A stretch of 64,000 bases of DNA from Centroscyllium fabricii (lineage: Eukaryota), in NCBI GenBank assembly GCA_051313645.2, contig JBNRSN020000003.1:78492001-78556000 (forward strand), written 5' to 3'. This document shows, in pieces, positions 41,583 to 44,727 of the stretch. The notes under the pieces are model-generated. The model was given only the letters and a program-made list of their open reading frames with translations. It was not told the DNA's origin and searched no databases. The position numbers and the translations under genes were made by a program. Every line of letters starts with the position of its first letter. The first letter of the stretch is position 1.

Positions 41583-44481
41583 CTAATTGCCCTTGAGAAG
41601 ATGGTGGTGAGCCACCTTCTTGAACCGCTGCAGTCCATATGGTGTAGGTACACCCACAATGTTGTTAGGAAGGGAGTTCCAGGATTTTGGCCCAGCGACA
41701 GTGAAGGAGCGGCGATACAGGTCCAAGTCAGGATGGTGTGTGGCTTGGAAGGGAACTTGTAGGTGGTGCTGTTCCCATGCGTCTGCTGCCCTTGTCCTTC
41801 TAAGTGGTAGAGGTCGCGGGTTTGGAAGGTGCTGTTGAAGGAGCGTTGGCGAGTTGCTGCAGTGCATCTTGTAGATGGTACACACTGCAGCCACAGTGCG
41901 CCGGTGGTGGAGGGAGTGAATGTTGAAGGTGGTGGATGGAGTGCCAATCAAGCGGCCTGCTTTATCCTGAATGGTGTCGAGCTTCTTGCGTGTTGTTGGA
42001 GCTGCACTCATCCAGGCAAGTGGAGAGTATTCCATCACACTCCTGACTTGTGCCTTGTAGATGGTGGAAAGGCTTTGGGGAGTCAGGAGGTGAGACACCC
42101 GCCGCAGAATTCCCAGCCACAGTATTTATATGGCTGGTCCAGTTCAGTTTCCGATCAATGGTAACCCCCAGGATGTTGATAGTGGGGGATTCAGCGATGA
42201 TAATGCCATTGAATGTCATGGGGAGATGGTTAGAGTCTCGTTTGTTGGAGATGGTCATTGCCTGGCACTTGTGTGGTGCGAATGTTACTTGCCACTTGTC
42301 AGCCTAAGTCTGAATGTTGTCCAGGTCTTGCTGCATATTTACACGGACTGCGTCAGTATCGGACGAGTCTCGAATGGTGCTGAACAGTGTGCAATCATCA
42401 GCGAACATCCCCACTTCTGACCTTATGATGGAGGGAAGGTCATTGATGAAACAGCTGAAGATGGTTGGGCCTAGGACACTGCCCTGAGGAACTCCTGCAG
42501 TGATGTCCTGTGGTTGAGATGAATGACCTCCAACAACCACAGCCAACTTCCTTTGTGCTAGGTATGATTCCAACCAATGGAGAGTTTTCCCCTTGATTCC
42601 CATTGACTTCAGCTTTGCCAGGGCTCCTTGATGCCACACTCGATCAAATGCTGCCTTGATGTCAAGGGCAGTCACTCTCACCTCACCTCTTGAGTTCAGC
42701 TCTTTTGTCCATGTTTGGACTTAGGCTGTGATGAGGTCAGGAGCTGAGTGGCCCTGGCAGAACCCAAACTGGGCGTCAGTTAGCAGGTTATTGCTGAGTA
42801 AGTGCCGCTTGATAGCACTGTCGACGACACCTTCCATCACTTTTCTGATGATTGAGAGTAGATTGATGGGACGGTAATTGGCTGGGTCGGATTTGTCCTG
42901 CTTTTTGTAGACAGGACATACTTGGGCAATTTTCCACATTGCTGGGTAGATGCCAGTGTTGTAGCTGTACTGGAACAGCTTGGCTAGGGGCGCAGCTAGT
43001 TCTGGAGCACAAGTCTTCAGTACTATTGCCGGAATGTTGTCAGGGCCCATAGCCTTTGCAGTATCCAGTGTCTTCAGCCGTTTCTTGACATCACGTGGAG
43101 TGAATTGAATGGGCTGAAGACTGGCATCTGTGATGCTGGGGACCTCAGGAGGAGGCTGAGATGGATCATCCACTCGGCATTTCTGGCTGAAGATAGTTGC
43201 AAATGCTTCAGCCTTGTCTTTTGCACTCACGTGCTGGGCTCCACCATCGTTGAGGATGGGGATATTTTTGGAGCCTCCTCCTCCTGTTAACTGTTTAATA
43301 GTCCACCACCACTCACGACTTGATGTGGCAGGACTACAGAGCTTTGATTTGATCCGATGGTTGTGAGATCGCTTAGCTCTGTCTATCGCATGTTGCTTCT
43401 GTTGTTTGGCATGCAAGTAGTCCTGTGTTGTAGCCTCGCCAGGTTGACACCTCATTTTTCGGTATGCCTGGTGCTGTTCCCGGCATGCTCTCCTGCACTC
43501 TTCGTTAAACCAGGGTTGATCTCCCGGCTTGATGGTAATGGTAGAATGAGGGATATGCCGGGCCATGAGGTCACAGATTGTGGTTGAATACAATTCTGCT
43601 GCTGCTGATGGCCCACAGCGCCTCATGGATGCCCAGTTTTGAGTTGCCAGATCTGTTCGAAATCTGTCCCATTTAGCACAGTGGTAGTGCCACACAACAC
43701 GGTGGAGGGTATCCTCAACATGAAGACGGGACTTCGTCTCCACAAGGACTGTGCGGTGGTCACTTCCACCAATGCTGTCATGGACAGATGCATCTGCAAC
43801 AGGTAGATTGGTGAGGACGAGATCAAGTAGGTTTTTCCCTCTTGTTGGTTCCCTCACCACCTGTCGCAGACCCAGTCTGGCTGCTATGTCCTTTAGGACT
43901 CGGCCAGCTCGGTCAGTTGTGGTGCTATCGAGCCACTCTTGGTGATGGACATTGAAGTCCCCCACCCAGAGGATATTTTGTGCCCTTGCTACTCTCAGTG
44001 CTTCTTCCAATTGATGTTCAACATGGAGGAGTACTGATTCATCAGCTGAGGGAGGGCGGTAGGTGGTAATTAGTAGGAGGTTTCCTTGCCCATGTTTGAC
44101 TTGATGCCATGAGACCTCATGAGGTCCTGAGTCAATGTTGAGGACTCCCAGGGCTATTCCCTCCCGACTGTATACCACAGTGCCACCACCTCTGGTGGGT
44201 CTGTCCTGCCGGTGGGACAGGACATACCCAGGAATGGTGATGCTGGTGTCTGGGACATTGGCTGTAAGGTATGATTCTGTGAGTATGACTATGTCAGGCT
44301 GTTGCTTGACTAGTCTGTGGGACAGCTCTCCCAATTTTGGCACAAGTCCCCAGATGTTTGTGAGGAGGACTTTGCAGGGTCGACAGGGCCGGGTTTGCCG
44401 TTGACGTTGTCGTTTCCGGTGCCAAGGTCGATGCCGGGTGGTCCGTCCGGTTTTATTCTTATTGGTTTTCGTAGCGGTTGA
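41583..44481 (-). pseudogene. APE endonuclease-reverse transcriptase ORF with few lesions (stops at ~42721 and ~42304, deletion/frameshift at ~42115)
   Basis: [93 protein letters not shown]. Confidence 0.9.
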
Positions 44482-44727
44482 TTACAACTGAGTGGCTTGC
44501 TAGGCCATTTCAGAGGGCATTAAGAGTCAACCACATTGCTGTGGGTCTGGAGTCACATGTAGGCCAGACCAGGTAAGGACGGCAGATTTCCTTCCCTAAA
44601 GGACATTAGTGAACCAGATGGGTTTTTGCAACAATCGACAATGTTATCATGGTCGCCATTACTAAGACTAACATTTAATTCCAGAATTAAATTGAATTGA
44701 ATTTAAATTCCACCAGCTGCCGTGGTG

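Follow-up and report, generated by a model that had tools for sequence, protein, structure and literature searches.

The window, that is, the whole stretch of 64,000 nt analysed here, contains a full-length Zenon LINE of the CR1 group on its minus strand and a SINE-like derivative of this LINE on its plus strand. The features are as follows (positions are those of the window):

41514..44806, minus strand: full-length tRNA-headed Zenon (CR1-group) LINE, 3.3 kb, poly(A) tail, inactivated in this copy; 5' end as in the published elasmobranch Zenon consensus sequences
44728..44806, minus strand: tRNA-derived head with Pol III A box (44798-44788) and B box (44738-44728); start of the copies
44628..44727, minus strand: variable 5' part of the leader; 16/97 columns differ between subfamilies A and B
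44482..44627, minus strand: near-invariant leader core, a candidate ribosome-recruiting element; 1/146 columns differ, plus one 1-nt insertion
44570..44598, minus strand: helix H1, pair probabilities 0.39-0.81; stingray has G-U and whale shark G-C in place of one A-U pair (by eye)
44488..44513, minus strand: hairpin H5 with the 7-nt loop CUAGCAA (44503-44497) and the shape of an anticodon stem-loop; pair probabilities 0.92-0.99
44482..44484, minus strand: in-frame TAA; TAT or TAC in four other species
44473..44475, minus strand: invariant in-frame GCT (29/29 A copies and five species), predicted partner of the loop AGC or first decoded codon
44470..44472, minus strand: codon after GCT; ACG in the window, ACA or AAA in other species
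41583..44481, minus strand: single ORF with an Arg/Lys-rich N-terminal extension, APE endonuclease (44358-43756) and reverse transcriptase; first in-frame ATG at 43626
12805..13298, plus strand: SINE-like derivative with an internal deletion; head, leader and the first four codons are fused to the LINE 3' end

A single ORF with APE and RT, the lack of an ORF1 and the poly(A) tail are the features of a Zenon LINE. For white shark, whale shark, catshark, spiny dogfish and stingray, a Zenon consensus is given in the supplement of PMC13343379, and these elasmobranch entries (CarCar, RhiTyp, HypSab, ScyCan and SquAca_Zenon) represent the same family, being about 3.3 kb long, without ORF1, with a poly(A) tail and with the same head and leader; their sequences were compared by eye over the first 400 nt of each entry. 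The window LINE sits inside an older CR1 element. Its ends (44806 and 41514) show no evident target-site duplication in this host, and a crude search gave candidate duplications in 3 of 16 full-length copies. The window copy is dead: its ORF is interrupted by stops at 42723 and 42306, and the frame is broken further on. No tRNA gene was called by ARAGORN in its head. Tandem arrays with periods of 25, 55 and 20 nt were also seen in the window at 8439-8963, 5167-5551 and 54027-54276, respectively.

Absence of an in-frame AUG ahead of the endonuclease across the family

The original prediction had placed the opening of the frame directly after the TAA at 44484-44482, and the window sequence and its translation confirmed this reading (STATKTNKNKTGRTTRHR...). 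It had also claimed that the codon at 44343 is GTG, not a Met codon, and that the first in-frame ATG past the TAA is at 43626. Both were found to be so; this ATG is codon 286, and the Pfam endonuclease covers residues 42-242 and is thus encoded upstream of it. The SINE copy does keep the leader, since 12862-13150 is 97% identical to 44467-44755, and the first four codons are kept too. All of the coordinates given in the prediction were correct.

The first 611 nt were used as the query against a 7.2-Gb genome (G000) and yielded 2,335 candidates, of which the best 40 scored 98-100% identity. Thirty loci were fetched and 29 were aligned; L012 was left out because an insertion misplaced it. All 29 young copies, which constitute subfamily A, have a common head start and the same leader-ORF junction, and a private in-frame ATG before codon 246 was found in only two of them. 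An older subfamily, B, was represented by 54 loci of the same genome after one duplicate and five A-type copies had been removed. The first in-frame ATG of the consensus is codon 286 in both subfamilies, so no ATG was lost from the window copy and the absence is family-wide. One copy (L037) has an intact stop-to-stop frame of 972 aa, and 7,482 exact matches to the leader-ORF junction of the A type occur in G000. Furthermore, no alternative or spliced 5' end was seen among 30 copies picked by an ORF motif alone: 28 had the core upstream, a 29th had the 5' part of the leader, and the two copies without the core had no other upstream sequence in common. CR1-group LINEs are usually 5'-truncated; the 5' end is kept in most G000 copies (loci L031-L049 and L080-L109).

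The endonuclease is under purifying selection. Between the majority columns of A and B, 25 of 160 synonymous and 10 of 464 non-synonymous sites differ in codons 38-245 (APE), giving a dN/dS of 0.125, and the value for codons 246-480 is 0.175. Selection on codons 38-245 argues that the AUG-less part is translated. Codons 10-33 count against the proposed reading, as just 2 of 10 changes between A and B are synonymous in its frame (hand count). In another view, the copies with a tRNA head would be SINE-LINE chimeras without autonomy, and an undetected Zenon master that has an ordinary AUG would copy them in trans. Template switching often exchanges the heads of SINEs (PMC4824008; PMC7245038), the A and B heads differ at 19/73 columns, and the G000 searches score the best candidates only. 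However, the ORF is under purifying selection between two headed subfamilies, leader sequence is present in 29/30 ORF-anchored copies, and the head stands at the start of the consensus of all five species. We consider such chimeras very improbable.

Conservation and folding of the leader core

The original prediction described a leader of about 245 nt that is almost unchanged in the SINE copy. The constrained part is its 3' stretch of about 146 nt; the 5' part is variable. In the core (44627-44482), 1/146 columns differ between A and B versus 63/317 synonymous sites (Fisher p 1.6e-10). The constraint is restricted to this segment: 16/97 columns differ in the 5' leader and 19/73 in the tRNA head (window 44806-44728 compared with G000 loci L050-L109). 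Subfamily B has the same core under a different head, and head divergence on a near-identical core suggests head turnover or relaxed constraint. Within one genome, exchange with the abundant SINE copies could mimic constraint on the core. However, a comparison by eye of the consensus sequences published for the five species likewise showed hardly any change in the core.

The few substitutions in the core mostly keep pairs, and three helices are supported by them (by eye, post hoc). In H4, G-U becomes G-C in whale shark and U-A becomes C-G in a single copy (L085). In H5, G-C becomes G-U in 15 of the 42 B copies having a base there, and stingray has A-U in place of an A-C mismatch. One change, in whale shark, disrupts the pair that closes H1. 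Folding of the leader was not significant against shuffled sequences (z -0.38 to -1.37). The start of the endonuclease coding region (44300-44150) gave a stronger z of -3.15. No Rfam family matched the element; three hits were far below the gathering score, and no ribozyme family matched. The Deu domain was rejected as the identity of the leader, the Deu alignment in the supplement of PMC7245038 being a different sequence (by eye). A GGCAG after the B box (44730-44712) is complementary to the H1 loop CUGCC (44587-44579), and a kissing-loop contact would be possible. Four of the five published consensus sequences keep this complementarity; in the stingray entry the stretch is affected by a deletion.

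The SINE derivatives are deleted LINEs. A junction after ACG, joining the leader to the LINE 3' end, has 7,236 exact matches in G000, and one directly after H5, without the GCU, has 128. Twenty SINE copies of the latter type were aligned: all have the core and most have an A- or B-type head. At one locus (L013/L040; G000:C822:27506100-27510200), a full-length LINE is immediately preceded by a SINE derivative in head-to-tail order. Retention of the core by the SINE derivatives supports a role for it in retrotransposition and is compatible with protein binding or ribosome binding. As these SINEs are non-coding, it fits a role outside translation too.

Such a role is the basis of another explanation, in which the core is kept for the element's own protein or for Pol III (RNP assembly, RNA stability or 5' recognition), whilst a capped or read-through transcript is scanned, or shunted, to a weak near-cognate codon near 44478-44470. 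Besides the non-coding SINEs with their core, it can draw on the R2 protein, which binds a structure in its own 5' RNA (PMC6765202), and the context of the ACG is fair in both subfamilies. However, ten upstream ATGs would intercept scanning ribosomes, the ACG is ACA or AAA in four other species, and TTTT is depleted in the element, as Pol III would require. We regard this explanation as unlikely.

Transcription and candidate modes of initiation

A and B boxes are present at the 5' end of the LINE. A run of four T is the rule for a Pol III terminator. No TTTT occurs in the 3.3-kb sense strand of the window copy or of L037, and among 18 copies four contain one such run each, at a shared position in three of these. 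With synonymous shuffling, the mean was 2.9 TTTT runs and the chance of zero was 0.029 (0.003 with base shuffling); for comparison, the host CR1 has 10 in 2.8 kb. Subfamily B has no TTTT in the 1.8 kb covered. This absence is compatible with Pol III transcription of the Zenon LINE, and, judging from the promoter boxes and the missing terminators, the LINE is likely transcribed by Pol III as an uncapped RNA. Contigs of four public runs span the leader and the ORF start, and contigs carry no information on RNA ends.

The stop upstream of the GCT is TAA in G000 and dogfish and TAT or TAC in the four other species, and the linker upstream of the GCT is 1 nt shorter in whale shark. From the GCT toward the endonuclease the frame is open in 4/5 published consensus sequences (by eye); SquAca_Zenon-1, whose first 400 nt match subfamily B (by eye), is one base short after the GCT and its frame is broken. 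The A-rich tract after the GCT differs among species in length by whole codons, and the frame was kept in 21 of the 29 measurable B-type copies of G000. An Arg-rich extension also precedes the NIxGL motif in P0007, the best distant homolog (41% identity); it is about 31 residues long, as compared with 39 residues from the GCT here, and follows the called Met of P0007. We infer that translation would start at or beside the GCU at 44475-44473, without a conserved AUG-like codon; non-AUG initiation in the Zenon LINE is likely.

The neighbouring codon was considered in two further ways, and both were rejected. As a conserved near-cognate start, ACG fails because the codon is ACA or AAA elsewhere. 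As the remnant of a lost ancestral ATG, codon 4 was rejected because its states in B copies (9 ATG, 16 ACA, 15 ACG) match CpG decay at other sites (CG 589, TG 220, CA 274). Among the first 100 junctions listed of the 7,482, ATG stands in place of ACG in 12 and ACA does so in 11 (hand count). An in-frame ATG thus arises often through CpG decay, and it is the majority state at this codon in none of the families examined. The ATG at 44536 could begin a long uORF in the +1 frame, which is open in subfamily B and two species but closed in A, stingray and whale shark, and is therefore not general.

The leader of the window copy has 10 upstream ATGs, each closed by a stop, and one of them is in frame, as ATG-GCC-TAG at 44508. 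Translation might start at a real AUG and reach the ORF by recoding, either by readthrough from this AUG-GCC-UAG or by a -1 shift from the out-of-frame AUG at 44456. In three species ATG-GCC-TAG-CAA is in frame with no second stop, but a second stop, TAA, is present in subfamilies A and B, the 44508 ATG is out of frame in whale shark owing to the linker there, and this ATG is part of the stem of H5 and reads GTG in some copies. The +1-frame ATG is found in 329 exact G000 matches, in the B majority and in all five published species; against it, the young and abundant subfamily A has ATA at 44456, and neither an X XXY YYZ slippery heptamer nor a 2A motif occurs in 44545-44300. Recoding seems to us quite improbable, even more so than scanning to a near-cognate codon.

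The most likely mechanism, held with modest confidence, is AUG-independent initiation directed by the conserved core. The tRNA-headed Zenon LINE would give an uncapped Pol III transcript, its near-invariant core would recruit ribosomes internally, and translation would begin without an AUG at or beside the GCU (44475-44473). The original prediction of an IRES-like leader driving a non-AUG start gains from the constraint on the core, the lack of a lost ATG or of another 5' end and the pair-keeping changes; it is weakened by folding z-scores of -0.4 to -1.4, by the lack of an Rfam match, by the lack of type 6 IRES motifs and by the non-coding SINE derivatives that have the core, 128 of them without the GCU. 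On the sequence evidence, the leader is a plausible candidate for an IRES.

The loop of H5 may give a more specific model. Its sequence CUAGCAA is identical in the five species, and its AGC is complementary to the in-frame GCU located 12 nt beyond the stem, with 3-4 bp possible. In this model, the AGC loop would pair with the GCU as a tRNA does with its codon, like PKI of the dicistrovirus IGR IRESs, and decoding would begin with the codon that follows (ACG, ACA or AAA). The consensus of tRNA anticodon loops is the yardstick for the shape of the H5 loop. An anticodon-like hairpin reading one of three candidate codons occurred in 0.05% of shuffles under a strict, post hoc definition and in 16% under a relaxed null. 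The nested folding model prefers the stem GUGGUUG:CAACCGC (p ~0.95), in which two bases (GC) of the GCU are buried, and a fold leaving the GCU free is about 5 kcal/mol worse. Covariation between loop and GCU is absent because both are invariant. We regard the tRNA-mimicking pairing as possible but doubtful. A bolder model, about as tentative, would make the core a factorless tRNA-mimicking IRES on a Pol III transcript, with elongation proceeding without Met-tRNAi; the SINEs would keep the core to sit on ribosomes and capture new reverse transcriptase.

Relation to known elements

The IGR (type 6) IRES of dicistroviruses begins protein synthesis from a codon other than AUG right behind a structured RNA of about 150 nt, with PKI mimicking an anticodon-codon pair, and GCU is the commonest start codon in types 6a-6d (PMC12221177). 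By analogy, the Zenon leader would share with it a candidate non-AUG start after an RNA of about 150 nt, an anticodon-like H5 loop and GCU. However, the leader belongs to a vertebrate retrotransposon, has only 3-4 possible PKI pairs and is without the type 6 motifs: no motif of L1.1a/L1.1b, SLIV, SLV or types 6d/6f was found at its structural position, UGCUA, CAGCC, UACUA, AUACG and G(U/A)CAGG are absent from the leader, other short type 6 motifs occur in it only at unfitting places, and no PKII or PKIII pseudoknot was identified by inspection. A GGUU:AACC pseudoknot with GCU as the first codon would be possible and was set aside, since GGUU has local partners in B-type copies. Thus, the leader may function like a type 6 IRES and is not classifiable as one. 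A protein scan of metagenome contigs for DNA of divergent homologs gave no relatives, and 9 metagenome and 112 viral motif matches had no resemblance to the element outside the motif.

Translation of uncapped non-LTR RNA via a 5' structure has precedents. The HDV-like ribozymes of R2 and L1Tc were proposed as IRESs (PMC6765202). Those RNAs are uncapped by self-cleavage, whereas the Zenon LINE would be uncapped through its tRNA-type Pol III promoter. Bipartite SINEs and internally deleted LINE derivatives were described earlier (Persaeus/Zenon, PMC6740152; PMC5786205), and there, as here, the short form keeps both LINE ends. Persaeus has no Pol III promoter; here the autonomous LINE itself bears the tRNA head, so that the shark SINE is simply a deleted LINE. 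Hagfish and coelacanth Zenon entries in the supplement of PMC13343379 have no such head in their first 400 nt. The longest ORF2 of the Zenon families in that study ranges from 324 to 747, as compared with 972 aa stop-to-stop in the window family, and a term search of its main text gave no hit for tRNA, start codon, translation, promoter or polymerase III. The literature covered yielded no account of an autonomous LINE headed by a tRNA, nor of a Zenon element that initiates at a non-AUG codon, with Repbase, Dfam and subscription journals outside this scope.

SINEs are set apart from LINEs by their transcription by Pol III and are regarded as non-coding (PMC5786205). This boundary becomes less sharp with a tRNA-headed LINE that is autonomous, and such an element needs a route for translating an uncapped RNA. 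Luke et al. (PMC3894237) treated IGR-type IRESs in non-LTR elements as an open possibility, which would force ORF2 definitions to be revisited. In the Zenon family the candidate is well delimited (about 160 nt), its start codon is predicted and the base pairs to be mutated can be named. The conserved body of the SINEs would gain a function open to testing, and cap-independent expression a compact element derived from a vertebrate.

Single-ORF LINEs with a 2A sequence carry DxExNPGP before the APE; in the window LINE this motif is absent in all three frames. Among 156 distant homologs (P0001-P0156), 22 have a 2A-like DxExNPGP near the N-terminus.
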